From NCBI GenBank assembly GCA_964410015.1, contig CAYPFV010000002.1, positions 1 through 57,938 on the forward strand: a stretch of 57,938 bases of DNA. Direction: 5' to 3'. The notes beneath the pieces are model-generated. The model saw only the letters and a list, made by a program, of their open reading frames with translations, was not told where the DNA came from and made no database searches. A program made the position numbers and the translations under genes. The DNA is from an uncultured Bacteroidales bacterium. Lineage in GTDB: Bacteria > Bacteroidota > Bacteroidia > Bacteroidales > UBA7960. Positions 235 through 57,938 of this stretch are shown here, one piece after another. Numbering within the stretch: position 1 is the stretch's first letter; each line of letters begins with the position of its first letter.

Positions 235-364
235 TTCATCTGTTTATAATTAGATTAAACAGGTTAGATGGAGCCCGCCAAAACTCCGGTTTTGTGTTTT
301 GTCCCAACCACGAAATCAATTCATCCGCGTGTGTGTCAATAATATTGTCATGGATCGGATCAAC
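235..364 (+). repeat. Intergenic repeat unit, copy A (about 125-nt family)
   Basis: TTCATCTGTTTATAATTAGATTAAAC..GATGGAGCCCGCCAAAACTCCGGTTTTGTG..ATTCATCCGCGTGTGTGTCAATAATATTGTCATGGATCGGATCAA. Aligns along its full length with copies at 37902-38034 and 57801-57938 (reverse). Confidence 0.9.
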
Positions 365-5481: not shown

Positions 5482-8400
5482 TCAGGGTGCAACAGAAACC
5501 TTCTGAAGCATTTGGTTAACAATATCGTGCTTATGTTTTTCTACATTTAAGTGGTCAGGCATTATATGTAATGCCCTTTCTAATGAAAAACCCATCATCT
5601 GGCTCAACCAGGGCGAATTCATAAGCACAGGCATTTCCCTCATCAGAATATTACGAGCCACAGGATGTGCAATCAGTTCTGCTATTTTATAATCCGTGGA
5701 TAAATTCACAGTAAGCAGATTTTCCTCTTGCTTTTCGTCAAAAGAGTATTCTTCAAAACCCAATGCTGAGTAGGTGAAAACATAGTTCCCAGATCCTGTT
5801 TTGACGATTACATTCCCATCTTCTTCTCTGATTTCGTCTGCCAGTTTGCTTCGCAACAAAGTTACATTGTTCATATTAACAAGTGAGGCAATGGCATTGG
5901 GTAAAACGATGGTAGCATTTGTGTTGGCCGGTATCACAACTTCAAGTTCGAAGGTTTTATCTGTAAGATTCCATTGTGAAAGAACCCTGCCGTAGGGTGT
6001 ATTTTGAAAAGCCCTGGCATGGGTAATTCCACCTCCGGGATTTGGCGATATATTAATGGTTTTGTATGCAGGGGCGGTATGTTTTATACCGGCAATTTCG
6101 CGGTACATCCATTCTGCTATGGCACCGTAAGCGTAGTGATTAAATGAGTTCATTGCAGGGCTTTGGAAAGTGCTGTCGGGTTTTATTCCATCCCAGCGTT
6201 CCCAAATGGTGGTAGCACCCATTTTAACTGGATAAAGCCATGAGGGATAACGGGTTCTCAAAAGAAGATCATACGCCTCTTTTTCGTATCCAAATTCACT
6301 CAATACATGATTCAAATGAGGAGTACCCAAAAAACCTGTTGTAAGATGTCCGCGTCTGCGAACATCATTTACCAGATATGCGGTAGCATCTTTACGTCTG
6401 TTTTCCGGTAGCAAATCGAACTGAAGTGCCAAAAGATAGGCAGTTTGCGTATCGGAGGTAAGGCGACCATTAGGGGTGACAAACTCTTTTCTGAATGCAT
6501 TCTTCACATTTTCGTATAAAAAAGTAAAATACTCTTTATCTTCTTGTATATTGAGAATCTCAGACATTTTCAACGCCAGATGTGTAGAATGGGCAAAATA
6601 TGCCGTAGCAATAAGATCGGTATGGGTATAAGATCCTGCATAATCGGGGCGATCAATCGTGGCATAAGCCAGCCAATCACCAAAATGGTAATCACCCGTC
6701 CAGATATACGGGTCGTCTTTTAAGGCGGCGCGTCCCCGCATATATTCAACCCACTTCTTTACAGATTTGTATTGCTTTTTAAGCAGAAGGGTGTCGTTGT
6801 AAGCCTGAAAAACTGACCAGGTAACAACTGCAGCAGCATCGCCCCAGCCTGCTGCACCTGCAGCATTATCACCCAAAACATTCGGTATTACATGGGGAAC
6901 AGCACCATTCTCCAACTGATCTGCGCTAAGATCATCTAACCATTTCTTTAAAAAAGCAGCTGTGTGCATTTGAAGACTGGCCGTATTGGCAAAAACCTGG
7001 ATATCGCCAGTCCAACCCATCCTTTCATCGCGCTGAGGACAATCAGTGGGTATTTCCAGGAAATTACCTTTCTGCCCCCACACGATATTATGTTGCAACT
7101 GATTGATCAAGGGATTCGACGATTCAAAATGCCCGGTTGGTTCCATGTCTGAATGGATCACCATGCCTGTAAAGTCATCCGTATTAAAATCTCCCGGCCA
7201 ACCACTTACGGCAACATATCTGAATCCCTGAAAGGTAAACCGGGGTTCCCACTCTTCCAAACCTTCACCCTTTAGAACATAGGTATTGAGCTGGTCCGCG
7301 CTGCGCAGATTAGCTGTATAGAAATTCCCCTGTTTGTCGAGGGTTTCAGCATGCCTTAATTCAATCTTAGTACCTTTTTGTGCTGAAACTCTGATTTTCA
7401 TCCATCCTATCATATTTTGTCCCATATCCAGTACAGTATCTCCTGCAGGGGTTACAAACCATGAAACAGGTTTCAGTTCCTGTATTTTTTTTACCGGAGG
7501 CGATTGCCAGGCTATAAGCTTTTCCATAGGAATATCTTCTGCTACTTTTACCTTTTGCCAGTCTCTGTCTTTAAAACCTGGTTTGCTCCATCCGGGCATT
7601 TCTAAACGTGCATCGTAATATTCACCTTTGTAAATGTCGGACTTACGGATTGGACCTTGCAATGCTTTCCAGTTTTCATCAGTACCGGTAGTCAGGGTAG
7701 AACCATCTTCGTAAGTGATGTGTATCTGAGCGATAAATGCCAGTTTTTCACCGTAATAGTTCCTTTGATCTTCCCATCCTAAAAAACCACGGTACCATCC
7801 ATCGGCCAGGTAAGCGCCCACGGCATTCTCGCCCATTTGCAGAAAGTCTGTTATATCATAGGTCTGGTAGGGTACTCTTGATGCGTAACTGGTCCATCCC
7901 GGCGTAAAAACCTGATCACCAACGCGTTTGCCGTTTATTTCAATCTCATACAATCCGTGAGCAGAAGCATACAAACGTGCCGATTGTATTTCTTTTTTAC
8001 TTTTAAATACTGACCTGAATTGTGTTACCGGCTGAGATGAGGCAGTATCTTCATCAAAAGGAGTTTGTATCCATTTGACTTTCCATTCAGATGGGTTGAG
8101 CAAACCGGTCTCAAAAAATGATGCTTCACTCCATACTGAACTATTGCCATGATTATCCTGCACTTGTACACGCCAATAATAGCGGGTTTGACTCTCCAAA
8201 GGAATGCCCTGGTACTGAATATGGATCGATTGGTCTGAATACTCCCTGTCTGTATCCCAAACTATTTGACGATCATTTTGAAATTCCGGATCTTTGGATA
8301 CCTGCAAATGATATGAAGTTTGCGTGGTATTATTCATATTGCTTCTCATGATCCACGAGAATCTGATATCATCTCCACCAGTGCCCATAGGATTTTTATG

Positions 8401-8526
8401 ATAGTTGATCTTTAATTCATCAACTTCAAGGCTTTGTCCAGGGTCTGAAGTTTTAGGTAAAGAGTTGGAAAACAATGAAAAACAAGAAATAACAACCAGT
8501 GGTAGAGAAATGAGCATTGCTTTCAT
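5482..8526 (-). CDS. Alpha-L-rhamnosidase, glycoside hydrolase family 78
   Basis: GH78 N-terminal pattern (YHLQVSKDPEF.., ARLYASAHGLYEIEINGKRVGDQVFTPGWTSY) and a six-hairpin catalytic region (PTDCPQRDERMGWTGD). Start set at the internal MKAMLISLPLVV signal peptide; the ORF is open up to 8583. Confidence 0.88.
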   Translation of the reverse strand: MKAMLISLPLVVISCFSLFSNSLPKTSDPGQSLEVDELKINYHKNPMGTGGDDIRFSWIMRSNMNNTTQTSYHLQVSKDPEFQNDRQIVWDTDREYSDQSIHIQYQGIPLESQTRYYWRVQVQDNHGNSSVWSEASFFETGLLNPSEWKVKWIQTPFDEDTASSQPVTQFRSVFKSKKEIQSARLYASAHGLYEIEINGKRVGDQVFTPGWTSYASRVPYQTYDITDFLQMGENAVGAYLADGWYRGFLGWEDQRNYYGEKLAFIAQIHITYEDGSTLTTGTDENWKALQGPIRKSDIYKGEYYDARLEMPGWSKPGFKDRDWQKVKVAEDIPMEKLIAWQSPPVKKIQELKPVSWFVTPAGDTVLDMGQNMIGWMKIRVSAQKGTKIELRHAETLDKQGNFYTANLRSADQLNTYVLKGEGLEEWEPRFTFQGFRYVAVSGWPGDFNTDDFTGMVIHSDMEPTGHFESSNPLINQLQHNIVWGQKGNFLEIPTDCPQRDERMGWTGDIQVFANTASLQMHTAAFLKKWLDDLSADQLENGAVPHVIPNVLGDNAAGAAGWGDAAAVVTWSVFQAYNDTLLLKKQYKSVKKWVEYMRGRAALKDDPYIWTGDYHFGDWLAYATIDRPDYAGSYTHTDLIATAYFAHSTHLALKMSEILNIQEDKEYFTFLYENVKNAFRKEFVTPNGRLTSDTQTAYLLALQFDLLPENRRKDATAYLVNDVRRRGHLTTGFLGTPHLNHVLSEFGYEKEAYDLLLRTRYPSWLYPVKMGATTIWERWDGIKPDSTFQSPAMNSFNHYAYGAIAEWMYREIAGIKHTAPAYKTINISPNPGGGITHARAFQNTPYGRVLSQWNLTDKTFELEVVIPANTNATIVLPNAIASLVNMNNVTLLRSKLADEIREEDGNVIVKTGSGNYVFTYSALGFEEYSFDEKQEENLLTVNLSTDYKIAELIAHPVARNILMREMPVLMNSPWLSQMMGFSLERALHIMPDHLNVEKHKHDIVNQMLQKVSVAP

Positions 8527-8929
8527 TTTCAAGGAATTAGCAGTAAAAAAAGTAGAGAAGATAAAAATTGTCAGTGATGGCATGTAAAGTTAAGCAATTT
8601 TGAAAATTCAACCTTACGTATCATTCACTTCCCTCGAAAATCTGAACAATCTTTGTTTTTTTATGAGAATAAGATAAAAAACTATTGATTGGATGTAAGA
8701 CAAATAATTGGCAGAACTCTGGTTTGACCAAACTATTCCGGATGATTTTCCATACTTTTAAATGTCTATCGGTTGTATACGCCCGGTTTTTGTGTAATAA
8801 CTGTTTTAAAAATATTTTGAAAAAGAATTTATCGCTATACACCAACCGGCAAAAGCAACAGTTACGCGTTTTGAACAAAAAAGATAGCACAACCCGGGAA
8901 GGGTCTTAGCTGGTCTGTTAATACAAAAA

Positions 8930-11446: not shown

Positions 11447-11809
11447 CTACAGATAAGCACACTTTTCTTCCCCCAGCACAAAATTTTCAGCAACAATAAT
11501 CGCTTTTTCACCAGGCAATACATAACAGGTTATCCATTTACAAGGTAAACCCGAAATAGCACGACAGATTTTCTCTGCAATGCAATAAACGCCATCAGGA
11601 ATAAACAAACTATCTGCTGTTTTTAAAACATCAGCACCTTCCTGTATGGTTTTCCGGGGAGCATTTTTATCTCCGGAGTTGTCATCAGTGCCCCAGGGAG
11701 ATACATAAAAGACTGCACCCTGTGCTGAAATTGCTGCAAAAATTAAAAAAAAGACAGATAAAATAAAATAATCCCGGCAATAAGGCATTTGTCCAATAAA
11801 TATTTTCAT
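11447..11809 (-). pseudogene. Probable truncated remnant of a right-handed beta-helix (DUF1565 / pectate-lyase-like) secreted protein
   Basis: Signal peptide followed by FYVSPWGTDDNSGDKNAPRKTIQEGADVLKTADSLFIPDGVY, which matches the N-terminus of large beta-helix proteins. The ORF stops after 120 aa. Confidence 0.35.
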
Positions 11810-12020: not shown

Positions 12021-12042
12021 GCAGATTAAAACCTTATGATTT

Positions 12043-13890: not shown

Positions 13891-13898
13891 AAAACAAG

Positions 13899-13944: not shown

Positions 13945-14109
13945 TGCTGCTGTTTGCTGCATTATTTATAAAACCTCTGTTATATCTCTTTCTAATCCCT
14001 GCATTTTTCTTTCACACTTCCCTTTTGCATCCTCCCTTTAAACTAATTACCTGCTTATTTTGTTAAGATGGATAAAATAAAAATTTATTCATGTAAACAT
14101 CTGTTATTT

Positions 14110-14505: not shown

Positions 14506-14563
14506 TTAACCTTAATCATGAATCTATAATACGATGAGATAAATCTTTAAAGAAGGAAATGAA

Positions 14564-15802
14564 ATGAAAAACAGAAAACATAACAAAAGCATTGCTTTAT
14601 TATCGGGAGTCATATTCCTGATGATTAGCATACCGGGAGCATTTTTTGGGGTAAATGCTCAAATAAGGGTAACCGAAAGAGTAATAGATGACAACATCAG
14701 AAGCGAAATGGTTAACTTTCGGATTGTACAGGTGGTGGAAGGACTGGAACATCCCTGGGCAATTTCCTGGCTTCCCGATGGTCGTATGCTGATAACCGAA
14801 AGACCCGGCAGAATGCAATTGATCGATGGAAATACAGTAACCCAGCTTAAAAATCTGCCTCCCATACACTATCAGGAGGATCAGCGAACCGCTCCGCAAG
14901 GGGGTAGTCAGGCAGGATTACTTGATGTGGTAGTACATCCCGATTACGAAAATAACGGATGGATCTACTTTACCTATTCAAGCCCTGGCGACGCCGATGG
15001 GGTGAATGCACGGCATGCTACCGGCACTGCACTGGCACGGGCAAAACTTAATGCCGATAACACTGATCTTACAAACCTTGAAACACTCTACACCCTGATG
15101 CCAAGAACACAACCCGGAAGACACTACGGATCGAGAATCGTATTTCCCGGTGATGGAACAGTTATGTTTTCCATTGGTGACAGAGGACTCAGATATCCTT
15201 CCCAGGAACTTACAAACCCCGCCGGATCCATCATCAGACTCCTGGAAGATGGGGGTGCCCCGCCTGATAATCCTTTTGTAAACGTGTTTCCAGGAAATCT
15301 GAGACCTGAGATTTATAGCTTCGGACACAGAAACAATCAGGGAATGGCCCAAAATCCCTTAACAGGTGAGATTTGGGCCACTGATCATGGCCCTAACGGA
15401 GGAGACATGCTTTACCAAATTGAAAAAGGAAATAACCACGGATGGCCAAATGTGGCTTTCGGAAAAGAATATTCTACCAGCGAACATATTGGTATTGGAA
15501 AAGAAGCACCAGGTGTGAAAAAACCTGCCTGGGTATGGGAAAACTCCATGGCTCCTTCTGGATTGGCTTTCTATAATGCCGAACCTTTTCAGGAATGGAA
15601 TGGACATTTACTCGCTGGCTCTCTCATTCGCGAAGAGATTTACAGAATCGTACTGGATTATGGAAAAGTTACACATAAAGAAACACTTATTACCGGAAAA
15701 ATTGGACGCATCAGAGATATCAGACAAGGACCTGATGGTTTTGTTTACATTGCTACAGACGAAACAAATGGAGGTATTTACAGACTTGAACCGGTAAGAT
15801 AA
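14564..15802 (+). CDS. PQQ-dependent sugar dehydrogenase (soluble aldose/sorbosone dehydrogenase family, YliI-like)
   Basis: Signal peptide; beta-propeller motifs LEHPWAISWLPDGRMLITER and GHRNNQGMAQNP.TGEIWATDHGPNGGD...GNNHGWP. Confidence 0.85.
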   Translation: MKNRKHNKSIALLSGVIFLMISIPGAFFGVNAQIRVTERVIDDNIRSEMVNFRIVQVVEGLEHPWAISWLPDGRMLITERPGRMQLIDGNTVTQLKNLPPIHYQEDQRTAPQGGSQAGLLDVVVHPDYENNGWIYFTYSSPGDADGVNARHATGTALARAKLNADNTDLTNLETLYTLMPRTQPGRHYGSRIVFPGDGTVMFSIGDRGLRYPSQELTNPAGSIIRLLEDGGAPPDNPFVNVFPGNLRPEIYSFGHRNNQGMAQNPLTGEIWATDHGPNGGDMLYQIEKGNNHGWPNVAFGKEYSTSEHIGIGKEAPGVKKPAWVWENSMAPSGLAFYNAEPFQEWNGHLLAGSLIREEIYRIVLDYGKVTHKETLITGKIGRIRDIRQGPDGFVYIATDETNGGIYRLEPVR

Positions 15803-15837
15803 ATCTCTCATACAATACTCAACCTAACTACCTGAAA

Positions 15838-15885
15838 AACCACCCCGGAATTCTGAACAGGTTTTGTGGGGTGGTTGGCTTTTTC
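15838..15885 (+). terminator. Intrinsic terminator after the sugar dehydrogenase gene
   Basis: 9-bp GC-rich stem AACCACCCC / GGGGTGGTT (15838-15846 / 15868-15876), then GGCTTTTT. Confidence 0.65.
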
Positions 15886-15955
15886 AGAAATAATTACACA
15901 CTCAATTCTCCTTATGCTGAAAATGCTTATTATGAAAAAAATAAATTTTTAATGC

Positions 15956-16870: not shown

Positions 16871-16901
16871 GCATCCTGCCTTCACCTTACTTCAAAGGAA
16901 G

Positions 16902-18383
16902 TTACAAACCATATTGGGTAATTGCATTCAACAAACCCGTGATCTTTTTTCTCATCTGAATAGCAGAGCCCGTATAGTTATTAACGATAATTGTAAAAGC
17001 AATCATGTTTTCCTCAGAATCTTCTGTATATCCTGCGTATGCCCAAACATGATCAAGATAACCACTCTTTGCTCTGAGCAAACCTTCAGAAGGAGTACCT
17101 TTGAATAATCCTGACAATGACCCACTGCGACCGGCAACGGGTAATCCCTGAATGAGAGATTCATAAATTTCGCTATTTCTTGATGCAAGTATAAGAATCT
17201 GAGTCAATTGCGAAACAGTGATTAAATTAAATGGCGATAATCCACTACCATCATGAATACGCATTCCCTGCTTATCTATGCCATTCTCTTGCCAGAATTT
17301 TTCAATCACTTCGGCTGATGCTTCAAAACTTCCCTCATCATTCACCTCTTTTCCCAGTACTTTAAAAAGATTTTCGGCATAAGAATTTACGCTTTTCTTA
17401 TTGGTACGTGCAGCTATCTCATTCAAAGGAGGTGATAACCATTTACTCAACACAATTCTGCCAGCATCTTCAGGAAGTTGCGGATGCGTTTGATGGGTGA
17501 ATACCTCACCATCTATAGATATCTGATTTTTTTTCAGAAAACTTCTAAAAGCCGAGGCAGCAAAAAATCCAGGATCGGGCATCGAACCCTTTACAGCAAA
17601 ATAATCCTGACCCAAAGGAACAGTGCCAGTCAACCACCTTTGCTTTTGACCAGGTACACCAAAAATATACACCTGATCTCCCGAACCTATCGCTCCGGTA
17701 GTTACATGGTTGATAAATGTCATACCATCGATACGAGGACGGGTAGACAAAACCCTGGCAGGTTCACCCTCTTTATTCCCGGGTCGAAAAAAAACTGTAT
17801 ACATATTCTCATGAACAGAAAGGGCATGTGCACCGGCACCGTAATAATTTCCAATGTCTTCCCAATTCCATTTGCTGGGTATCATATGATCATCAAAAAA
17901 AGTCCCGTCGGATACTATATTACCCTTTATACTTTTAATGCCTGCTTTTTTAATACTTTCCAACCATTCATTGAAAATAGTTTCCAAAGACAAAGAATCA
18001 CTCATCTGAACAGCTCCAAAAGTTGGGTCTCCCATCCCTTTGATGATCAAATCACCTTTTAAAGTATCGCCGGTTAAAGTCCCGGAATATTGCAGAAGTG
18101 TTTCAAACTGATAATCAATACCCAAAAGAGATAGGGCAGTAATCGTGGTAATGAGTTTTTGAGTAGAAGCATTGATGAGCGAAAGGTCGGGATTCATAAA
18201 AACTTTTTGGGAAGTATCTGCGGTACTGACTGCCATAAAACCCCATGAGGCATGTTTTAATTGTTCATCTTCGGCAAATTGATCCACAGCTTGTCTTAAA
18301 TCTTTAGGCTTTTGAGCCACAACAGACCTTCCATAAGATAAAAGCAATATCAGAAAAAAAATAAAGGATTGATTCAGTCTCAT
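16902..18383 (-). CDS. dacB: D-alanyl-D-alanine carboxypeptidase/endopeptidase (PBP4, peptidase S13)
   Basis: Signal peptide, SxxK motif (NASTQK), S13-type layout including DGSGLS and KSGYL (KTG-like) motifs. Confidence 0.85.
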   Translation of the reverse strand: MRLNQSFIFFLILLLSYGRSVVAQKPKDLRQAVDQFAEDEQLKHASWGFMAVSTADTSQKVFMNPDLSLINASTQKLITTITALSLLGIDYQFETLLQYSGTLTGDTLKGDLIIKGMGDPTFGAVQMSDSLSLETIFNEWLESIKKAGIKSIKGNIVSDGTFFDDHMIPSKWNWEDIGNYYGAGAHALSVHENMYTVFFRPGNKEGEPARVLSTRPRIDGMTFINHVTTGAIGSGDQVYIFGVPGQKQRWLTGTVPLGQDYFAVKGSMPDPGFFAASAFRSFLKKNQISIDGEVFTHQTHPQLPEDAGRIVLSKWLSPPLNEIAARTNKKSVNSYAENLFKVLGKEVNDEGSFEASAEVIEKFWQENGIDKQGMRIHDGSGLSPFNLITVSQLTQILILASRNSEIYESLIQGLPVAGRSGSLSGLFKGTPSEGLLRAKSGYLDHVWAYAGYTEDSEENMIAFTIIVNNYTGSAIQMRKKITGLLNAITQYGL

Positions 18384-24879: not shown

Positions 24880-24933
24880 CTTGATTTTGCCATCAGTCAT
24901 TTTTTTTCTCTTTCTACTTTTAACTCACCTACC

Positions 24934-25815
24934 ATGCCCGATCATGTTAAAGAACTGCTTAGCATTCAAGAAAGTCATGACGAGGACGAATCAGAATTGA
25001 ATGACCTTAAAAAAGATTTTTTATCCATTGAACTCTCGCGCGGTGTATTTTCTTATTGCGTGCTCAATACACAAAAGTTTAGGTACACAACACTCGAATC
25101 ATTCAAATTTGAAAACATAAAATCATTCGATAGCTTATCACAGGTGCTTGAATCACTGGTTAAATCCAGAAAATTGCTTGCACAAAATTACCAAAGGATT
25201 AGCCTGGTTTTCATTCATCCTTTGGCAACGCTCATACCTGCAAATTTGTTTTCTTACTCAGAAAAAAATCAATACCTCGAATTTCACACCTACACTGATA
25301 ACCAAAATGAAATACGAGTTGATAAACTTAATAATCTTGGAGCGTATTCGGTTTATTCCTTTCCTAAAACCCTCAGTCAAAAAATCAATTTTCTTTTTCC
25401 CGGTTGCAGGATAAGACATATTTCAACCACACTAATAGAAAACATTTTGTACATGAACCGCTATCAGGAAATAGATATTCAACTGGCGCTGCATATACAA
25501 AATGATCATTTCGAGATACTTATCTTTAAAGAGAAAAACCTTATTTTTTACAACTCTTTCCGTTATCAGACATGGGAAGACCTGTTTTATTACCTGTTTT
25601 TTGTACTCGAACAAATGCGTTTAGAAGCAGAAAACCTTCACACACTTATTCTTGGTGAAGTAAGCATCAACAGCGCTTTTTACAAACAAGCAAGGCTCTA
25701 TTTCAAATCTCTTCATTTGGCTCCCCGCAACGATCTTTACAAGTATGCAATGGAATTTGACAGCATACCACATCATTATTTTTTTAACCTTCTAAACCTG
25801 AATGCATGCGGATAA
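24934..25815 (+). CDS. DUF3822-like protein
   Basis: LSIELSRGVFSYCVLN resembles the DUF3822 N-terminus. Overlaps the rsmD start by 10 nt, the usual Bacteroidota arrangement as I recall it. Confidence 0.55.
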   Translation: MPDHVKELLSIQESHDEDESELNDLKKDFLSIELSRGVFSYCVLNTQKFRYTTLESFKFENIKSFDSLSQVLESLVKSRKLLAQNYQRISLVFIHPLATLIPANLFSYSEKNQYLEFHTYTDNQNEIRVDKLNNLGAYSVYSFPKTLSQKINFLFPGCRIRHISTTLIENILYMNRYQEIDIQLALHIQNDHFEILIFKEKNLIFYNSFRYQTWEDLFYYLFFVLEQMRLEAENLHTLILGEVSINSAFYKQARLYFKSLHLAPRNDLYKYAMEFDSIPHHYFFNLLNLNACG

Positions 25816-26336
25816 TTGGAGGTAAGAATCAAAGAAAGCAGATATTTGCTCCGGTAAAACTTCCCGTAAGACCCACAACCGACATGGCTAAAGAGGCGCT
25901 TTTCAACATCCTGAATAACTACTTTGACTTTGAAGAAATATCTGTACTCGATCTTTTTGCCGGTACGGGCAATATCTCATATGAATTCGCATCAAGAGGT
26001 GCACGCGAAGTGGTATCTGTAGATCAGAACAAAATGTGTACAAATTTTATTAAAGAAACTGCTGATAACCTTCATCTGCCTAATATCAAAGTGATAAAAA
26101 CAGATGTTTTTCACTTTCTTGGATTTAATACTTCACAATTCAATATTGTTTTCGCCGATCCTCCTTATGATACTTCAAGGTATGAAGAGATAATAGAAAT
26201 GGTATTTAAAAATCAATTCATTGCTCACGAAGGATGGATGATCATGGAACATAGCAATAAACAAAAATTCAACTCCTCTCAGCATTTCTTTGATCTTCGC
26301 AGATATGGAAAAGTACATTTTAGCTTTTTCAAATAA
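25806..26336 (+). CDS. rsmD: 16S rRNA (guanine966-N2)-methyltransferase
   Basis: MRIIGG......RPTTD..KEALFNIL....VLDLFAGTG.....SRGA...VDQN.....DPPY motifs. Confidence 0.85.
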   Translation: MRIIGGKNQRKQIFAPVKLPVRPTTDMAKEALFNILNNYFDFEEISVLDLFAGTGNISYEFASRGAREVVSVDQNKMCTNFIKETADNLHLPNIKVIKTDVFHFLGFNTSQFNIVFADPPYDTSRYEEIIEMVFKNQFIAHEGWMIMEHSNKQKFNSSQHFFDLRRYGKVHFSFFK

Positions 26337-26420
26337 AAAAACATATCTTTGCTTTCTGCTTTCCCTATCCATACTTAATCAGATCATTAAACCAAATTAT
26401 ACCAAAAAGCAACATATAAT

Positions 26421-26870
26421 ATGATCACAATATCAAAGGCAACTCTTCAACATATTCATGATATCGCAACTTTTCAGGTTGCAATGGCAAAAGAAACTGA
26501 AAATCTTAACCTTCAGCAGGATGTTGTTGAGAAAGGAGTTAAATACTTTTTCGATCATCCTGAAACAGGATTTTATTTGCTTGCCTGCTATAATGAAAAA
26601 GTAGTAGGTTCGCTGCTTTTGCAATATGAATGGAGCGAATGGAGAAATGCAAAAATTATCTGGGTACACTCGGTTTTTATTCAGCCTCAGTTTAGAGGAA
26701 AAGGCATTTACAAAAAAATGTATCATAAGGTGCAGGAGATTGCTTTCCAAAACCCTGAAATTGCAGGAATAAGACTCTATGTAGATAAAACGAATGCTGT
26801 TGCTAAAAAGGTTTATGAAAAAATGGGTATGTCAGCCCGGCATTATGATCTGTATGAATGGATGAACTAA
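26421..26870 (+). CDS. GNAT family N-acetyltransferase
   Basis: 149 aa; acetyl-CoA binding motif VFIQPQFRGKGIYKKM. Confidence 0.8.
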   Translation: MITISKATLQHIHDIATFQVAMAKETENLNLQQDVVEKGVKYFFDHPETGFYLLACYNEKVVGSLLLQYEWSEWRNAKIIWVHSVFIQPQFRGKGIYKKMYHKVQEIAFQNPEIAGIRLYVDKTNAVAKKVYEKMGMSARHYDLYEWMN

Positions 26871-27017
26871 GCCTTGACAATATTATAGACATACTCGCAG
26901 ATGATTATAATATCGAAACACGGAGAAAATTACAAAACCGGAGTTTTGGCAAGCTCCCCCGTAAGAAAAGAACGGGGCAGGCATCTGAGCGAATTAATCA
27001 AATTATAAACAGATGGA
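26862..27017 (-). repeat. Intergenic repeat unit, copy B (reverse orientation, with a hairpin insertion)
   Basis: The reverse complement reads CCATCTGTTTATAATTTGATTAATT..CAGATG[CCTGCCCCGTTCTTTTCTTACGGGG]GAGCTTGCCAAAACTCCGGTTTTGTAA..TGTCTATAATATTGTCAAGGCTTAGTTCAT. Its end overlaps the last 9 nt of the GNAT CDS. Confidence 0.8.
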
Positions 27018-27067
27018 AAATTTTTAACTAACCTTTATCATTGCAGCAAATCCAAAACCAACAAAAA

Positions 27068-27526
27068 ATGAAAAAAATTGCCGTATTTCCAGGTTCATTT
27101 GACCCGATTACAAGAGGACATGAATCCATTGTAAGAAGAGCTATACCGCTTTTTGATAAAATAATTATTGCCATTGGTGTAAATGCCGAAAAAAAGGGGT
27201 TTTTCCCTGTTGAGAAAAGAAAAAACTGGATTGAAAAAGTTTTTGAAAATATAGAAAAAGTGGAAGTTGATACCTACAGCGGACTTACCGTACAATATTG
27301 CCGTGAAAAAAATGCAAGGTTTATTCTAAGAGGATTAAGAACCTCGGCCGATTTTGAATTTGAACGAAGCATCGGACAGATAAACAGGCACATGACACCC
27401 GAAATTGAAACAGTATTTTTACTTACCACACCAGAATTTACAGCACTTACCTCGTCTATTGTGAGAGATATAATTCGCAACAATGGAGATATTTCCGATT
27501 TTGTACCCCGGCAGGTTACTTTTTAA
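27068..27526 (+). CDS. coaD: Pantetheine-phosphate adenylyltransferase
   Basis: MKKIAVFPGSFDPITRGHESIV (HxGH-type motif). Typical length from the ATG at 27068; the ORF is open from a TTG at 27041. Confidence 0.9.
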   Translation: MKKIAVFPGSFDPITRGHESIVRRAIPLFDKIIIAIGVNAEKKGFFPVEKRKNWIEKVFENIEKVEVDTYSGLTVQYCREKNARFILRGLRTSADFEFERSIGQINRHMTPEIETVFLLTTPEFTALTSSIVRDIIRNNGDISDFVPRQVTF

Positions 27527-28752
27527 TGTTTTTCTGCAAAACTTTGATATATGCCATGATAAGTATCTATACCAGTTTTCAGATTAAAAGAATCCAGTGC
27601 TTTTTGTCTGATCTGCTCACGGTCAAGTGATAATAAATGATCGATCTTTTGTATTGCATGATCAAACTCTTTGTCAGAAAAATCTTTGATCACAATGCCT
27701 GCTTTTTCGTCGGCCATAATGCTGTCTGTATCTCCTACACCTGCATTGCAAATCAAAGGAATCCCCATACTAAGAATTTCTGCCTGTTTGGTAGGACTGC
27801 TGGCTTTTTTAGAAAAAACAGGTCTTATGAAAAATATGGATACCTGAGATAATGCCAGATACTTGGGCACATCTTTTCTCTGAGCAGCTACAACTCTCAT
27901 ACTGTCATCACTAATACCATATTCTGCTGATTTTTTTTTCAATGCATGCTCATCATCTGTTGTAATAAAAAGAAACTTAGCATGTGCATATTTATTTTGC
28001 AACCGCTTGAAAAATAGCATCATCTCTCCCGTCATATACCATGTTCCGGTAGAACCTAAATAGGAAATCACAAAATCCTTGTCTCCAATATTCATTTCTT
28101 TCCTGAACTGCAAAAGCAAAGAATGATCAATGCCATCCATAGAAAACAAATTTGTATCTACACAACAAGGTATCACTGTTGTTTTATCATGAACACTTTT
28201 TCCGAAAAGTTCCCGAATCACCTGTTTTCCATTGTAAGTCAAACTTATAACTGCATCAGCATATCTGAAAAATAATTTTTCTTTCTTTTTAAAGTAGTGA
28301 TAAATAATACGATAAACAGGATTGTCTAAATTCCATATATACCCTTCAATGCGCTCATTGGCCCAGAAACCACGCATGTCAAAAACAAACCGTATGTTGT
28401 ATTTTATTTTTAAATCCAAACCAGCCAGGGCAGCTATATAACTTCGACAATGTACGATGTCAAACTGGTTTTCCAAATGCAGGTGTTTAGATTTTCTTCT
28501 GATCTGAACAATGTCATAAAACTTTGATATCCATGGGGGTGAGGTTCTGAAGGTAAGAGATGACCATTGAATATTGGCAGTTTCTAACAGTTGGGTAACC
28601 TCGTTTTTATCCGATACAGAATTATGCTTTTTCTCGAAACTAATTACATGTATTTCATGCCCCAGACCACTCAGACCTAATAAATAAGGTATTACCTGAG
28701 ATCTGCCCAGCACATCGGTTAACCCATCGTAAGTTATATACAATACCTTCAC
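27523..28752 (-). CDS. Glycosyltransferase family 4
   Basis: MKVLYITYDGLTDVLGRSQV N-terminus and a C-terminal GT-B region with an EX7E-like segment (SSPTKQAEILSMGIPLICNAGVGD). Confidence 0.85.
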   Translation of the reverse strand: MKVLYITYDGLTDVLGRSQVIPYLLGLSGLGHEIHVISFEKKHNSVSDKNEVTQLLETANIQWSSLTFRTSPPWISKFYDIVQIRRKSKHLHLENQFDIVHCRSYIAALAGLDLKIKYNIRFVFDMRGFWANERIEGYIWNLDNPVYRIIYHYFKKKEKLFFRYADAVISLTYNGKQVIRELFGKSVHDKTTVIPCCVDTNLFSMDGIDHSLLLQFRKEMNIGDKDFVISYLGSTGTWYMTGEMMLFFKRLQNKYAHAKFLFITTDDEHALKKKSAEYGISDDSMRVVAAQRKDVPKYLALSQVSIFFIRPVFSKKASSPTKQAEILSMGIPLICNAGVGDTDSIMADEKAGIVIKDFSDKEFDHAIQKIDHLLSLDREQIRQKALDSFNLKTGIDTYHGIYQSFAEKH

Positions 28753-29490: not shown

Positions 29491-29769
29491 CGGACATGTT
29501 CTTATAATGATTTATATCTTGTTAAAACCTATAAAAAAGATTGATTAAAAAAATGCTTCATCTGATCAGGATTATTTTCTCAATGATATTTAGCAATTTA
29601 CCACTTGTGCCTTTAAATTGCTCTTTCATCAGGATAAAAGAAGGTATCTTATTCAGCTACCCAAGGCTTTGCCAACGGGTTGAAAAGAATTGCCATATCA
29701 GGGGTAATCCATTTTCAGTGCCATAATCATGCTCAAGTGTGTCAATAGTATTGTCATGGCCATGTTCAT
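29491..29769 (+). repeat. Divergent or composite copy (F) of the intergenic repeat
   Basis: Left-end-like CGGACATGTTCTTATAATGATTT at 29491 and a second GCTTCATCTG at 29556. The right half is clear: CCATAATCATGCTCAAGTGTGTCAATAGTATTGTCATGGCCATGTTCAT, ending at 29769. The interior is longer than in other copies. Confidence 0.5.
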
Positions 29770-29887
29770 TGATTCTAATTAGTGCAGCAAGAAAACTCTT
29801 ACTTTTTGTGTCTTTGATAAAAAATTGTCAAAGATAAGGCTTTCGAAGTTTTTGAATCCAAAGAGTTTATTTTTTGTAAATGACTGA

Positions 29888-30012
29888 TTCATCTGTTTAT
29901 TATTTTGTTAAATAGTCAGATGGAGTTCGTTAAAAGTCTGACCGCATGCTTTACATGCCCTGCATTATATCATGTAGGTGTGTGTCATAATCTTTGTCTT
30001 AGCTCGGTTCAA
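29888..30012 (+). repeat. Intergenic repeat unit, copy J
   Basis: TTCATCTGTTTATTATTTTGTTAAATAGTCAGATGGAGTTCG...ATATCATGTAGGTGTGTGTCATAATCTTTGTCTTAGCTCGGTTCAA. The central hairpin is replaced by GCATG-CTTTA-CATGC. Confidence 0.8.
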
Positions 30013-38596: not shown

Positions 38597-39631
38597 ATGA
38601 AAACTAATCTCGCCTCTATCAACGACATTGCCAAAGCATTAGGGGTTTCTGCCTCAACTGTTTCAAGAGCATTAAAAGACCATCCTGATATCAGCGAAGC
38701 TACGCGAAACAAAATAAAGGAATATGCCATGAAGGTAAATTACCGCCCCAATGCACTGGCTTTAAGCCTGAAACAACAGAAATCTAAAACTATCGGCATC
38801 GTAATTCCTGAAATCATTCATCATTTTTTTTCCTCTATTATCAGTGGTATTGAAGATATTGCCTACAACAAAGGATACAGGGTCATGATTTGCCAATCTA
38901 ATGAAGACCACCAGAGAGAGGAGATTAATGTACAGGCCCTGCTTGATCATCGCGTAGACGGCATGCTGGTTTGCATCAGTAAAAACACTACTCAATACAG
39001 TCATTTTCAACCGGTAATAGACAATGAAGTACCCATGGTATTTATTGACCGGATTTGTAAATCAATTGAAACGGACCGTGTGATTACCAATGATTTTGAT
39101 GGGGCAAAAATGATTACCAATCATTTGATCGAAAAAGGATTTAAAAAGATAATGCACCTGGGAACTTCTCCCCATCTCACCATTGGTCATAACAGAAAAA
39201 AAGGTTATATGGCCGCTCTTCAGGAAAATGATATTTTCCCTTCCCCGGAACTTATACTCGAATGCGATACCCCCCAGCGTGTATTGTTCGAACAAAAAAA
39301 AATGCTATCCCTGGCCCCCGATACAGATGCTATTTTTGCTGTCAATGATTTTACTGCCGTGGCAGCGATGAACCTACTCAGAAAAAACGGATACAGAATC
39401 CCGCAAGACATAGCCGTTGCCGGATTTGGCGATGACCCCATTGCAATGATGTCTGCCCCACCACTTACCACTGTTAAACAAAAGGGTTACCAGATGGGGC
39501 AGGAAGCCATGCTGCTTCTTTTACAAAAACTCGCAAATCACCTGGAAGCAGATCAAGGGGGGCAAAAGCAAGATTTTACAACAAAGATTTTTGAAGCCGA
39601 ATTAAAAATAAGGGAATCTACGCTTCGATAA
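38597..39631 (+). CDS. LacI family transcriptional regulator
   Basis: N-terminal HTH INDIAKALGVSASTVSRALK and a periplasmic-binding-protein-like sugar-binding core. Confidence 0.9.
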   Translation: MKTNLASINDIAKALGVSASTVSRALKDHPDISEATRNKIKEYAMKVNYRPNALALSLKQQKSKTIGIVIPEIIHHFFSSIISGIEDIAYNKGYRVMICQSNEDHQREEINVQALLDHRVDGMLVCISKNTTQYSHFQPVIDNEVPMVFIDRICKSIETDRVITNDFDGAKMITNHLIEKGFKKIMHLGTSPHLTIGHNRKKGYMAALQENDIFPSPELILECDTPQRVLFEQKKMLSLAPDTDAIFAVNDFTAVAAMNLLRKNGYRIPQDIAVAGFGDDPIAMMSAPPLTTVKQKGYQMGQEAMLLLLQKLANHLEADQGGQKQDFTTKIFEAELKIRESTLR

Positions 39632-45758: not shown

Positions 45759-45892
45759 ATCATCTGTTTATATTGTGATTTTATAAAGCAGTTAGCAGAG
45801 CTCGGCAATAAATCCGTATTGCTTGTTTTCTTCTATACCAATTAAGAAACATCTACATGCGAGTGTAAATTTTTTATCTTAACCCGGTTTAT
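45759..45892 (+). repeat. Degenerate copy (G) of the intergenic repeat
   Basis: ATCATCTGTTTATATTGTGATTTTATAAAGCAGTTAGCAGAGCTCGGCAATAAATCCGTATTGC...CATCTACATGCGAGTGTAAAT...ACCCGGTTTAT. A different 6-bp hairpin, GCAATA-AATCCG-TATTGC, occupies the central hairpin position. Confidence 0.5.
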
Positions 45893-50545: not shown

Positions 50546-52975
50546 TTAAAATCTTAACCTCATGCCGGCAAGGTAATGCCTGCCAGCCTGTGGAAAATAT
50601 CCATCTTCAATGGAAACCAATCCCTCTGAACCCAGATAACCTTTGTATATCCAGGCATTGGTAATATATTCAACATCTAAAATATTGTTAATCAAAAAGG
50701 TGAACTCCAAACGATTTAAAAAAGAATTATTGATTTCATATGAGAAACCTAAATCATTTACCAGGTAAGCATCAAGCTTACGATCATTACTCATGGTGTT
50801 ATCAATAAACTGATCACCTACATATTTTGAATAAAGATTAATGTGAAGATCTTCCAGTGGAGTATAGCGGAAATGACTGCCAGAAACCACAGATGGGGAA
50901 AAAGCAATATCAGTGTTTTTGTATGTTTCTTCCTGCGATCCCATCCAATTCCAATCCTCATCATATACATCAGAATACTCAGTAAAAGTAGGAATCTTAT
51001 TTCTGCTAAAGGCCAGGTTTGCTGTCCAATCAAGTTTTTCTGTTATGTTTACTGAACCTTCAAACTCAATCCCCATGCGATAACTGTCTTTAATATTTGC
51101 ACGTGAGAATCCACCTACATCATTGATCTCACCGGTAAGAATCAGTTGATTATCATAGTCCATAAGATAAACATTTACGCCCACTCTGGTATTGGAACTC
51201 TGATAGCGGTAACCTGCCTCAACATTATAAAGTGTTTCATGTGTTGGTCTGGATTCCGGTGAAGATTCTGTAAAATCACGTCTAACCGGTTCGCGATTAC
51301 TTATTCCTGCAAAACCATACGCTTCATGTGCTTTTCCAAACTTATAAAGCAAACCTGCTTTAGGATTAAAAAAATGGAAGACAGCACGCTGATCAAGAGA
51401 TGAAACCTCGTTGTCAACCAGTGCCAAACCCGTAAAGTCGTAAATAATATTGCGGTATTGAAGATCGGTAAACAAAAATAATCCCTCAGATAGCTGATAA
51501 TTGATTTTAATAAAGTTATTAAAATCAGACTTCTGTGCATCGTTATCATAAAACCGCTGGTCTTTTTCTATATTTTGTGCAAGAGCAGCCCAAATGATCT
51601 CTCCAAAATGGTCGCCTTCATAAATATTAAAACCACCGCCAAAAGTCATATCAAATCTATTGAATGTGTTATACTTTAACGAGTATGTAATACCATAAAA
51701 ATGATTGTCGAGCCAGCGGCGTCTGATCAGGTCTGTTTCCGTAAACAAAGTCGATTCAATGGTTACATCTTCAAGTCCGTAATCCTGGAAACTTTCATCT
51801 TCACGATATTGCTCGTAATAGCCCCGTCCGTAGGTATAATGCAAAGAACTGTTGGCAATCAGGGAGGGATTAAATTCATGTGTAAAATGTAATTGATAAT
51901 GATCCTGTTGATAATTATCAGTTTCATTCTCATAAAACTTCATGTTGCCATCATCATCAAAATACATCCCTGAGGGATTAAACCTGCGATCGGTTTCCAA
52001 CATATCGCCCGGAACTCCATTCCATGCCTGATAGGTTTTTTCGGTTCCGCTAAAAGTGATTGCTTTTACAACGGTGTTTTTTCCATAATATCCGCCAGAA
52101 AGATAAAAAGACTTCAGGTCAGAGGAAGCCCTGTCGATAAAACCATCTGAAGATATCCGGGAAAGTCGTCCGTCAAAGACCCAGTGGTCGCCCATCAATC
52201 CGGTTCCGAAATTCACTGTATTTCGTAATGTATTGAACGAACCTCCGGAGGAATGTACTTCACCATAAGCTTCTTTTTTCAGGTCGGTTGTATTTAAACT
52301 GATAGTAGCGCCAAAAGCAGCGGCACCCTGTGTACTAACCCCCACCCCTCTTTGTATTTGTATATTATCTGACGAAGAAGCAATATCGGGCATATTTACC
52401 CACCAAACACCATGAGATTCTGCATCATTTACAGGTATACCATTCAACGTTACATTGATGCGCGAATTATCGCTTCCCCGGATATTCATCCAGGTATATC
52501 CTACTCCGGCACCTGCATCTGAGCTGGTAACCAAACTGGTTGTTAAGGAGAGCAATACAGGCAGATCCTGTCCGAGATTTCGCATCTCAATCTCTTCCTT
52601 ATTTACACTGGTAAATGTAGAAGGCGTTTTTTCATCTGCGCGGGTGGAGTTTACAATCACTTCCTGGGTCATCAAAGAAGCTTTTTCCAATAATATTTCT
52701 TTGAAATTCTCCTCTGATGGGTTTATTTCAAATGTTTTTGTCTCAAAACCCAGGAAGGAAATCTCAAAAGTGTATTGCCGGGGTTGCAGGTTTGTAAATG
52801 AAAAACGACCTTCAGCGTCGGTAAAAGTACCCAGAAAAGTACCCTTTATGACCACATGAGCGCCAGGAAGCGTTTTTTGATTCTGTTGATCCCTTACCAC
52901 ACCTTCAAAAGTGTGTTGTGCATACAGCGTAAAACATCCCAGGGTAAGGATTGCTGCTAAAAAAAATCTGTTCAT
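50546..52975 (-). CDS. TonB-dependent receptor (thiamine-related, riboswitch-controlled)
   Basis: Carboxypeptidase-regulatory-like N-terminus (FEGVVRDQQNQKTLPGAHVVIKG), plug (MNIRGSDNSRINVTLNGIPVND), terminal ...GMRLRF. Preceded by a TPP riboswitch. Confidence 0.9.
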   Translation of the reverse strand: MNRFFLAAILTLGCFTLYAQHTFEGVVRDQQNQKTLPGAHVVIKGTFLGTFTDAEGRFSFTNLQPRQYTFEISFLGFETKTFEINPSEENFKEILLEKASLMTQEVIVNSTRADEKTPSTFTSVNKEEIEMRNLGQDLPVLLSLTTSLVTSSDAGAGVGYTWMNIRGSDNSRINVTLNGIPVNDAESHGVWWVNMPDIASSSDNIQIQRGVGVSTQGAAAFGATISLNTTDLKKEAYGEVHSSGGSFNTLRNTVNFGTGLMGDHWVFDGRLSRISSDGFIDRASSDLKSFYLSGGYYGKNTVVKAITFSGTEKTYQAWNGVPGDMLETDRRFNPSGMYFDDDGNMKFYENETDNYQQDHYQLHFTHEFNPSLIANSSLHYTYGRGYYEQYREDESFQDYGLEDVTIESTLFTETDLIRRRWLDNHFYGITYSLKYNTFNRFDMTFGGGFNIYEGDHFGEIIWAALAQNIEKDQRFYDNDAQKSDFNNFIKINYQLSEGLFLFTDLQYRNIIYDFTGLALVDNEVSSLDQRAVFHFFNPKAGLLYKFGKAHEAYGFAGISNREPVRRDFTESSPESRPTHETLYNVEAGYRYQSSNTRVGVNVYLMDYDNQLILTGEINDVGGFSRANIKDSYRMGIEFEGSVNITEKLDWTANLAFSRNKIPTFTEYSDVYDEDWNWMGSQEETYKNTDIAFSPSVVSGSHFRYTPLEDLHINLYSKYVGDQFIDNTMSNDRKLDAYLVNDLGFSYEINNSFLNRLEFTFLINNILDVEYITNAWIYKGYLGSEGLVSIEDGYFPQAGRHYLAGMRLRF

Positions 52976-53035
52976 TTTTATTGATTTATTTTGGGTTGAA
53001 CTTATGAGGGCAATAGGGTAAATCCCTCGTTAGTT

Positions 53036-53112
53036 ATTCCCTTCCCTTCGCCGGCATTATCCGGATCAGGTTCAATGGGTTTGATCTCAGCCCGTAATTT
53101 AGGGCACCCCTA
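53036..53112 (-). promoter_or_regulatory. TPP (THI-box) riboswitch aptamer
   Basis: The minus strand reads AGGGGUGCCCUAAAUUACGGGCUGAGAUCAAACCCAUUGAACCUGAUCCGGAUAAUGCCGGCGAAGGGAAGG. It contains the invariant THI-box blocks GGGGUGC, CUGAGA, ACCC and GAACCUGAUC.GGAUAAUGCC.GCG.AGGGA in the canonical order. Confidence 0.9.
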
Positions 53113-53340
53113 TTTTGATATGTTGTGCAAATGTAATAACATTTTCCAGTTTGTTAGTGCTACTTTAACAGATTTTAAATTGCTGAAACCCTTGTTTTCA
53201 CAATAAAAACATACATATTGCCCAAAATATCAAGCAACTAAACCAACTTTGGCTCACAACAAAACGACATGAAATGAGGTAACTGAAATAACAAATATCC
53301 TTATATTCTATTCCCCTTGTACAAAAAGATTTTTTTACCT

Positions 53341-53487
53341 TTACCTGTTTACCGTTTGATAAATTGAATTCTCCTTTTTTTCAATGAAAAGCGCTGCTCA
53401 AAAATATCCGTTTTATATTTATTGCTGTAGCACGAAATTTTAATCAGCTTTGTGCAGGTCAATAATATTGCTATGGATCGGTTCAAT
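53341..53487 (+). repeat. Degenerate copy (D) of the intergenic repeat, with a hairpin insertion
   Basis: TTACCTGTTTACCGTTTGATAAATT[...ATTGAA-TTCTCCTTTTT-TTCAAT...]GCTCAAAAATATCCGTTTTATATTT..CACGAAATTTTAATCAGCTTTGTGCAGGTCAATAATATTGCTATGGATCGGTTCAA. Confidence 0.55.
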
Positions 53488-55114: not shown

Positions 55115-55242
55115 TTTAAAATTTATTTTTTGATTAAAAAATCAGATATTTGTGAAAAATTATTTTTCCAGTTTTTATGAGACAGTTTTCTCATCATTAC
55201 TGACATTAAGGTTTTTCGTTGTTTTTTAAACTTTCTGCATGA

Positions 55243-55389
55243 TTCATCTGCTAATAATTCCGATGCAACAGGTTCTCGTTTTTTTTTAACGAGAGCGCCC
55301 GCAAACACTATTTGTTATGGACTTTTTACCATGTTGCGAAATTACAATCTTTCGTGTGTTTATCAATATTATTCTCATGGTCAGTTCAT
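55243..55389 (+). repeat. Intergenic repeat unit, copy H (with a hairpin insertion)
   Basis: TTCATCTGCTAATAATTCCGATGCAACAG[GTTCTCGTT-TTTTTTT-AACGAGAGC]GCCCGCAAACAC...GCGAAATTACAATCTTTCGTGTGTTTATCAATATTATTCTCATGGTCAGTTCAT. Confidence 0.8.
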
Positions 55390-55544
55390 CACACTTTATG
55401 ATAAATTGCTTTATTAGCGATAATTTTCGGCGGCAAAGATAATGATAGTTCATAAGTTTGTTTACTTTTTTCAGTTTGAAATCATTGACAAAAGAGAAGA
55501 ATTTACATTTATCCATCATAAATATAATTAAACATTCAAACACT

Positions 55545-57647: not shown

Positions 57648-57800
57648 AATTTTCTATGTAAAAATCTCCCAAAGTTAAATACATGCAGGTTTGAAAGAGA
57701 GTTTACAGAAGTAAACCCCCACAGAAATTTTTTACCCTGAACCTGATTTAAAATGATTGTATAAAACCTTTGTATGTAAAAACAAAAACCTCTTTCTGAT

Positions 57801-57938
57801 ATGAACCGAGCCATGACAATAGTATTGACACACACGCGGATGAATATAATTCGTGGCATAGACAAAAATACAAAACCAGAGTTTTGGCGAGCTCCATCTG
57901 ACCTAATTAATCAAATTATAAACAGATGAACCGAGCCA
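57801..57938 (-). repeat. Intergenic repeat unit, copy E (reverse orientation), running to the window edge
   Basis: ATGAACCGAGCCA occurs at 57801-57813 and again at 57926-57938, an exact 13-nt direct repeat 125 nt apart. The interior aligns in full with copies A and C in reverse complement. Confidence 0.9.

Follow-up and report, generated by a model that had tools for sequence, protein, structure and literature searches.

The question raised by this locus is what kind of element occupies positions 55243 to 55389 of a 57,938-nt stretch of DNA from an uncultured Bacteroidales bacterium (contig CAYPFV010000002.1; the whole stretch is referred to below as the window). An earlier note, made from the letters alone, had described the segment as copy H of a repeat whose copies carry different hairpins at the same internal position, and had taken structure kept while sequence changes as the pattern of a structured RNA or of a DNA cruciform recognition site. 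Copy H is an old relic of a miniature mobile repeat that is widespread in Bacteroidales and related Bacteroidota and inserts at the pentanucleotide ATGAA. The repeat is not a new structured RNA but a miniature transposon of a fairly ordinary sort; the family is new, the kind is known.

Evidence for insertion comes from a sister species represented by the metagenome-assembled genome (MAG) CAZPVB01, which is ~84% identical to the window over 10203-17042 (locus L039) and 24919-28465 (locus L153). Labels of this type denote loci from other MAGs, taken as ~8-kb pieces around copies; the window and the 155 loci together amount to ~1.1 Mb. Three sites differ in copy presence between the window and CAZPVB01, and at two of them the window holds the empty allele:

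14559..14568, + strand: empty site 1, ATGAAATGAA; a sister copy (L039:5272-5398) lies exactly here, directly before the start codon.
15833..15837, + strand: empty site 2, TGAAA, in the interval between the stop codon and the terminator hairpin of a glucose/sorbosone-dehydrogenase (GSDH)-family gene; sister copy at L039:6662-6790.

At the first site the window reads ..GGAAATGAA-ATGAA-AAACAG.., with the start codon of the GSDH-family gene at 14564, and at the second ..CTACC-TGAAA-AACCACCCC... At the third site it is the window that is filled, by copy B, which is absent from L153. There an acetyltransferase (GNAT) ends ..YEWMKDF* (ATGAAAGATTTTTAA); the GNAT of the window ends ..YEWMN* inside copy B, and an orphaned ATGGAAAATTTTTAA follows. 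Copy B shortened the C-terminus of this enzyme from MKDF* (sister) or MKNF* (inferred) to MN*. Each empty allele has one (A)TGAA and each filled allele has one on each side, and this presence or absence at a single (A)TGAA identifies the copies as real insertions. The flanking pentanucleotide has mutated on one side in three recent insertions, to ATAAA at L039:5272-5276 and L039:6786-6790 and to ATGGA at window positions 27013-27017; the mutation at L039:5272 eliminates an upstream decoy ATG. An exact-protein look-up with CoaD returned the filled allele only, a GalM ortholog search for a sister-species counterpart of the H locus returned only relatives of <=53% identity, and no informative empty-site joints were seen in Logan contigs of mat metagenomes, which end at the repeat. 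The same comparison revealed 914 nt in the sister (L039:1224-2138) that are extra relative to window 11419-11421. They lie within a minus-strand open reading frame (ORF) of 474 aa, of which the window keeps a remnant ORF of 120 aa (11447..11809), and the difference suggests a deletion in the window's lineage.

The borders of the repeat were placed by alignment of 53 near-full copies with their flanks, in which homology starts at TTCATCTG and ends at ..CATGGCTCGGTTCAT (GGTTCAT). The left border word TTCATCTG (TTCAT, then CTG..) is present in 74 and the right border word ..CGGTTCAT in 86 of 107 units, which range in length from 94 to 175 nt and typically measure ~130 bases. Their order of parts is 5'-TTCAT/CTGTTTATAATTTGATTAA..GGTCAGATG-(P2, an optional hairpin with a GC stem)-GAGCTCGCCA-(middle, variable or absent)-TTATAATCATCCGCGTGTGTGTCAAnAnTnTTGTCATGGCTCGGTTCAT/-3'. 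In an alignment of 81 sequences (A1) the left block corresponds to the conserved TTCATCTGTTTATAATTTGATTAAnnnGGTCAGATG and the right block to the conserved TTATAATCATCCGCGTGTGTGTCAAnAnTnTTGTCATGGCTCGGTTCAT; the middle exists in several unrelated versions or is absent (94-nt copies L076 and L110). The left end forms a hairpin, P1, and the right end another, GTGTCAAT-nnn-ATTGTCAT. A direct, same-orientation motif, ATGG(A)GCTCG, recurs in both end blocks, and terminal inverted repeats are absent, the ends CTGTTTATAA.. and ..CATGGCTCGG being non-complementary in the alignments. No copy with an internal gene was found, left and right ends lying at most ~170 nt apart in all ~150 right-end matches. 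Tandem neighbours overlap by a common (GG)TTCAT, as observed in L002, L011, L013, L019, L025, L045, L060, L067, L124, L134 and L143 and at the window end.

These borders bear on the possibility that the repeat is a classical MITE (a miniature transposable element with inverted repeats) moved by a DDE transposase, with a 5-bp target-site duplication at a preferred ATGAA. The same five nucleotides on both flanks and the single copy of them in empty sites are formally a target-site duplication. Against this origin, which we consider very improbable, stand the lack of terminal inverted repeats (CTGTTTATAATTTG at one end vs. CCGAGCCATGACAA as the reverse complement of the other) and a duplicated word that is near-invariant over at least 28 species, something DDE elements rarely show, and that is shared between members of tandem arrays. 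Two further candidates were rejected on anatomical grounds. The ends ATGAACCGAG and CAGATGAA misfit the RYYYAAC/GTTRRRY cores of an integron attC site and are not mutually complementary, and the repeat lacks the GTAG- or CGTC-tagged GC-rich palindrome of 20-40 nt that characterizes REP/BIME sequences.

A central 19-mer of the repeat occurs in 46 stretches of species-representative genomes, ~35 of them in the Bacteroidales MAG CAZPVB01. A scan with a right-end 17-mer identified true copies in at least 28 species-level Bacteroidota MAGs among the matches listed; matches of the 17-mer in other phyla were chance matches inside genes. The carriers are labelled Bacteroidales, Marinilabiliaceae, Salinivirga or 'Sphingobacteriia', and many derive from mats and soda-lake sediments. 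The DNA of the window itself originates from microbial-mat metagenomes; in the mat runs, the assembler word depth over the element reaches 300-1000x the depth of the flanks, and contigs break at the element. A search of plasmids gave no match, viral contigs yielded 4 chance matches in GC-rich coding DNA, and for the signature 15-mers of the repeat no paper was found in the literature searched.

The orientation of the copies largely follows that of the genes. The earlier note was correct in the literal sense that the loops of the optional hairpins are pyrimidine-rich in its + orientation, yet this orientation runs antisense to the genes nearby; the other strand reads 5'-ATGAACCGAGCC...TTATAAACAGATGAA-3'. 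Of 80 downstream genes, 70 run in the direction of this ATGAA strand and 10 against it, and the window copies that can be judged for direction all lie in sense upstream of the next gene (7/7). The final ATGAA coincides with the first ATG of the next ORF in 35 units. ORFs of >=100 aa are opened by 36/104 terminal ATGs, 22 of them with a signal-peptide or transmembrane-like N-terminus right there, and examples of such start codons also include those of pyrH, SUI1 and an epimerase. The gene on the upstream side is in most cases close and co-directional, and the flank before the element resembles a native 5' leader or promoter. Genes downstream are functionally unrelated and comprise sulfatases, an ABC ATPase, dehydrogenases, pyrH, SUI1 and secreted proteins. 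Inspection of both strands by eye for an outward Bacteroidetes-type promoter (TTTG...TAnnTTTG) gave only off-register near-matches (TA-N3-TTTG, left end). The ATGAA strand lies on the G-rich strand at a ratio of 63:41 (p~0.04), a skew that is confounded by gene direction. A rough count, made by hand arithmetic from base composition, suggests that an ATGAA target and purifying selection alone would put ~40% of surviving insertions on start codons.

A further explanation is that the repeat is a small gene in many copies. In the canonical unit the ATGAA strand is a 42-codon ORF (MNRAMTILLTHTRMI...NQIINR*) that covers the unit exactly and whose TGA overlaps the next ATG, an ATGA overlap that is kept in 32/104 units. 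However, unit lengths are spread over the three frame classes (21/19/14 when the sister MAG is left aside), early stops are present in most units, the 25-nt P2 inserts shift the frame, and intact ORFs are not enriched near genes (14/42 vs. 18/62). A small-peptide gene was rejected on this lack of a conserved reading frame and is, in our estimation, extremely unlikely.

An nhmmer profile built from four good copies detects nine family members in the 57,938 nt of the window, listed here with the parts of copy H:

55243..55389, + strand: copy H, diverged (~80% to the consensus) and full-length; nhmmer 55239-55390, E=3.9e-11; alignments A1 and A2.
55243..55247, + strand: TTCAT at the left border of H, a target-like motif that reads ATGAA on the opposite strand.
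55272..55296, + strand: P2 hairpin of H, GTTCTCGTT-TTTTTTT-AACGAGAGC, homologous to P2 of L070, L124b, L063 and L134b.
55336..55389, + strand: right-end block of H, a remnant of the CAATAT-TATTC palindrome plus the terminal TTCAT (55385-55389); matches the right-end profile hidden Markov model.
53343..53485, + strand: copy D, old, of the H subfamily, with a P2 remnant at 53363-53385; nhmmer 53343-53486.
26862..27017, - strand: copy B, type I, with a B-type P2 at 26957-26977; nhmmer 26861-27023.
235..363, + strand: copy A, type I, without P2; nhmmer 229-365.
37905..38034, + strand: copy C, type I, without P2; nhmmer 37899-38036.
57801..57938, - strand: copy Z (57801-57930; nhmmer 57799-57934) and the start of its tandem neighbour; the window end falls inside the array.
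29888..30012, + strand: copy J, with a type-II middle whose hairpin GCATG-CTTTA-CATGC lies at 29944-29958; nhmmer 29885-30012.
29557..29769, + strand: long aberrant copy with TTCATCTG on its left side, a right end that is recognisable (29723-29769; partial nhmmer match) and an unrelated 150-nt interior.
45759..45892, + strand: degenerate copy with a GCAATA-AATCC-GTATTGC middle; weak nhmmer match 45760-45866.

In copy H the P2 module is of the H type, the middle resembles type III and the right end is degraded (alignments A1 and A2). The profile E-values of H and D are ~1e-10 vs. 1e-36 to 1e-43 for A, B, C and Z, and because their scores fall so far below those of the other four, H and D are old, decayed copies. 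On the + strand copy B is bordered by ATGAA (26862-26866) and ATGGA (27013-27017), and of the tandem neighbour of Z the first 8 nt lie in the window, with an ATGAA common to both. Several of the copies stand in sense orientation before recognizable genes. Copy D is 220 nt upstream of a thiamine pyrophosphate (TPP) riboswitch and TonB-dependent receptor operon, copy C is 114 nt upstream of a SusC-like gene (34756..37791, - strand), and the degenerate copy at 45759..45892 is 148 nt upstream of ddl. The TPP riboswitch (53026-53121, - strand, 65.6 bits) precedes an 809-aa TonB-dependent receptor (50546..52975). A LacI-family regulator (38597..39631) lies on the other side of copy C, and ORFs at 33145..37791 (- strand; 1011 + 528 aa) and 5482..8583 (- strand; 1033 aa) are sized like SusC/SusD pairs, an assignment made by size.

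The feature that had drawn attention to copy H was the extra hairpin, which the earlier note reported from three copies as inserts with no sequence similarity to each other. The hairpins themselves were verified where they had been placed: at 55272-55296 in H, as CCCCGT-TCTTTTCTT-ACGGGG in B (reverse complement of 26957-26977), as ATTGAA-TTCTCCTTTTT-TTCAAT in D (53363-53385), and in the middle of J at 29944-29958. Copies A, C and J are indeed without an insert, as is Z. The supposed lack of similarity, on the other hand, did not survive alignment. In a second alignment (A2) the inserts of H, D and B align gaplessly with each other and with inserts of other MAGs (L070, L124, L063, L134, L001 and L060). 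The insert of H is TCTCGTT-TTTTTTT-AACGAGA, and that of L070, L124b, L063 and L134b is TCTCGTT-TTTTCC-(A/G)ACGAGA. Copies B, L001b, L124a and L060 carry CCCCGTT-(C/T)TTTTCT-TACGGGG (B itself CCCCGTT-CTTTTCT-TACGGGG), and D carries TCTCCTT-TTTTTCA-ATGAAAA. This homology refutes independent insertion of unrelated hairpins at one site: the extra hairpins in copies H, D and B represent a single optional module in different variants. Since the insert of D matches the H type column for column, D is a decayed H type, its stem having been drawn earlier in another register; the GCGC variant of the block after P2 is also common to H and D. The B insert recurs in ~10 copies of the sister MAG and in copies of other species and therefore marks a subfamily, not a private insertion. 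No P2-type hairpin was found outside the repeat in the ~1.1 Mb, which speaks against P2 being a separate small palindromic element, a possibility raised at the outset. The central hairpins that had seemed swapped, in J and in the GCAATA..TATTGC copy at 45759, are present as described but are type II and type III middles, the modules of other subfamilies that are seen elsewhere. B-type P2 modules occur with type I or II middles and H-type P2 modules with type II or III middles, and these different combinations indicate that modules reassort.

Some copies have further additions to their interior. A mini-hairpin with a tail (CCCG-loop-CGGGATAAAT), related to P2 and 21-24 nt long, is present at two different internal positions in different species, namely after GGAGCT (L081, L148, L091, L067, L106 and L113) and inside the right-end block (L135:5490-5650 and L132); it has the appearance of a very small insertion nested in the element or of a template-switch product. 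The copies at L074:1760-2036 and L133:3100-3333 harbour a long inverted repeat nested within them (CTATAAAGTCCGA...TCGGACTTTATAG), which seems to be the insertion of a further miniature element. At L058:5930-6062 the usual interior is replaced by a perfect-looking palindrome of 60 nt (TTGACGAACTTTTTTTTTGACATCAGGAAC..GTTCCTGATGTCAAAAAAAGTTCGTCAA) ahead of a right-end fragment.

Pairing in the stems was assessed across the family. The P2 stem is 93.5% paired, compared with 42-68% when the partner is slid, and the B and H types of P2 differ at stem pairs 1 and 3 by double changes from C-G to U-A. For P1 together with the right-end hairpin, pairing cells amount to 92.5%, vs. 88.2% in shuffles. The border-adjacent pair of P1 is C-G in 64 sequences and A-U in 5 (CATCTG/CAGATG to CATATG/CATATG), and one pair of the right-end hairpin is A-U in 37 and U-A in 28 sequences. 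The proposal that stems are kept while their sequence changes is borne out by these compensatory changes in P1, P2 and the right-end hairpin, which also speak against plain neutral decay. Selection acts on the hairpins. The counts of G-T and A-C mismatches (25 vs. 18) are too even to tell the folding strand.

Compensatory changes of this kind could point to a structured non-coding or cis-regulatory RNA, i.e., small RNA genes or common 5'-leader RNAs in which P2 is a variable-length stem. Such an RNA would agree with the sense placement upstream of genes, by which the ATGAA strand is probably co-transcribed, and on that strand P1 would pair the AUG of the gene (CAGAUG with CAUCUG), like a translational device. 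However, no copy matched Rfam 15, whether at the gathering score or at E<=5 (in the window only the TPP riboswitch at 53026-53121 matches), and RNAalifold found 0 consensus pairs on A1 (81 sequences). Folding z-scores are -1.5 to -2.0 for canonical copies, near zero for H (-1.0 and -0.8) and for the 94-nt minimal copy (+0.8 and -0.2), and -4.2 for B owing to its GC stem. The middle and P2 are dispensable or replaced and conservation is confined to the ends, the reverse of what a functional RNA core would show; the downstream genes have unrelated functions; and sister species differ in presence of the element at otherwise conserved loci. An own promoter or terminator is not evident, and the strand originally proposed is antisense. 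We therefore regard an RNA function of this type as unlikely. The other option that had been offered, a DNA recognition structure in single-stranded or cruciform form, provides a better fit, as insertion with a fixed 5-nt target and hairpinned ends suit HUH-type transposition.

Elements of the IS200/IS605 type are bounded by a transposon-adjacent motif (TAM) 5' of the left end and a near-identical transposon-encoded motif (TEM) at the tip of the right end, have hairpinned ends on one strand and generate no duplication; TAM and TEM are read by base pairing with internal 'guide' bases beside the hairpins. Gene-less derivatives, termed palindrome-associated transposable elements (PATEs), exist, and the TAM of ISGst5 is TTCAT (Meers et al., bioRxiv 10.1101/2023.03.14.532601). 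Taking these features together, we consider that the repeat is probably a non-autonomous, gene-less element that works like an IS200/IS605-type PATE, by single-strand peel-and-paste with TAM = TEM = TTCAT, while its membership in IS200/IS605 is unproven. The element would move as single-stranded DNA, with a Y1 HUH transposase supplied in trans that would cut after the TTCAT beside the left end (TAM) and after the TTCAT ending the right end (TEM). Hairpins and the direct ATGG(A)GCTCG motif at both ends would serve as recognition features. Guide-like contacts could be provided by P1, in which CAGATG pairs with the border word's CAT together with the element's first three bases, and by the ATG beside GCTCG, which would be available to pair with the CAT of the right tip. 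Because TEM equals TAM, every copy would offer a new target, hence tandem arrays; and because the target reads ATGAA, surviving insertions would gather at Met-Lys and Met-Asn start codons and in intergenic DNA. At start codons the inserted element would rebuild the start codon. For an element this small, double-strand circle routes involving a serine or tyrosine recombinase are implausible.

A second, unrelated repeat of ~110 nt, R2 (..AATTAGTGTCAGCAAGAAAAC..CGTAAATGACTGATTCAT; ending ..GACTGATTCAT, in TTCAT), was found in two species and abuts the left end of a copy in three places. It may be another passenger of the same insertion machinery.

29770-29887 of the window, and L001:1172-1284, L005:1343-1454, L015:4966-5077, L022:3631-3742 and L134:1-54: R2.

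A variant of the PATE-like explanation holds that the element additionally encodes an omega RNA or right-end RNA guide for a TnpB or IscB nuclease that is produced elsewhere. Transcription of the top strand would then run through the right end into flanking DNA, with the modular stems as the RNA scaffold. PATEs 'often encode omega RNAs', an IscB element with the TAM TTCAT exists, and both the compensatory changes in the modular stems and the length of ~100-130 nt would suit a guide. We nevertheless judge it quite improbable given the lack of an Rfam match, the 94-nt copies that dispense with most of the would-be scaffold, and the finding that no tnpB or iscB was seen beside a copy in the loci examined.

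Several observations weigh against peel-and-paste mobility of the IS200/IS605 type. No autonomous relative with the same ends was present among the ~150 right-end matches, tblastn with approximate IS200 and IS608 TnpA queries gave no match in the window and the 155 loci, and Pfam searches of ten less obvious ORFs in the window detected no transposase. The hairpins at the two ends of the repeat are unlike each other; in IS608 and ISDra2 they are alike. The best hairpin, P2, is optional, and the copies seen to have moved recently are without it. As TAM and TEM are identical, a true 5-bp duplication is indistinguishable from no duplication, and neither the mismatch counts nor the confounded GC skew decides which strand is 'top'. 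Finally, the ends are very highly conserved in many species (at least 28), and even among copies off start codons the sense orientation prevails 35:10; both could reflect a function at the level of the host.

Such a function might be that of a common mobile translational leader: the element would home to Met-Lys and Met-Asn starts and rebuild the AUG inside a covarying hairpin (CAUCUG...CAGAUG) behind a short decoy AUG. The conserved ends and the sense bias would then reflect host-level selection, or mobilisation by an unrecognised, possibly domesticated enzyme rather than by a standard IS200/IS605 TnpA. We hold this to be a doubtful alternative; if it were true, the leader would serve scores of unrelated genes across a phylum that lacks Shine-Dalgarno-led initiation.

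The repeat, which has no sequence similarity to any described element that could be tested, was compared with the closest known systems. PATEs related to ISGst1 and ISGst5 in Geobacillus stearothermophilus are likewise gene-less and devoid of inverted repeats, with a fixed pentanucleotide at the left, a near-identical right-end tip, hairpins near the ends, many copies and one orientation relative to the motif, which for ISGst5 is also TTCAT. The repeat differs from them in that no parent insertion sequence or Y1 transposase was found with these ends, in its dissimilar end hairpins, in the identity of TAM and TEM that gives tandem arrays, in its Bacteroidota host and in its strong association with start codons. 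Correia/NEMIS elements of Neisseria, ERIC/IRU, RUP and BOX resemble it in being ~100-150 nt long, intergenic and co-transcribed with their neighbours, and ERIC has subfamilies with internal insertions at fixed positions, as in this repeat. These elements have terminal inverted repeats or long imperfect palindromes and TA or unspecific targets, in contrast to the direct end motifs and asymmetric 5-nt target described here. REP/REPIN sequences with their RAYT (TnpA-REP) are hairpin-forming, lack an internal gene and are thought to be moved in trans by a single-copy HUH Y1 enzyme, but they are GC-rich palindromes of 20-40 nt with a GTAG/CGTC tag and no fixed insertion target. Rickettsia palindromic elements (RPEs) and IStrons are also small and tolerated in or at the edges of genes since expression survives, and IStrons share an IS605 TAM and the sense orientation. 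However, translation continues in frame through RPEs, and IStrons are removed by splicing as group I introns; in the repeat the frame is not kept and no ribozyme family matches. Unlike in RPEs and IStrons, tolerance here would rest on rebuilding of the ATG.

The main points of interest in this family are a target that reads as a start codon, the tandem arrays, the conservation of the ends across the phylum and a partner enzyme that was not found in the DNA examined. For annotation, the repeat matters in that it breaks Bacteroidales MAG assemblies, creates false small ORFs (MNRAMT...) and alters gene termini, as in the GNAT, and the 130 nt inserted between promoters and start codons call for care with gene-start and operon predictions. 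Its modular hairpins with compensatory changes show which parts the machinery needs. The family also offers a clean natural example of how a 5-nt target that reads as a start codon channels a transposon of single-strand type to gene starts, and of how a right-end motif equal to the target yields tandem arrays. If the mobilising enzyme were found, the repeat would constitute a compact element with a defined target for a phylum with few genetic tools.

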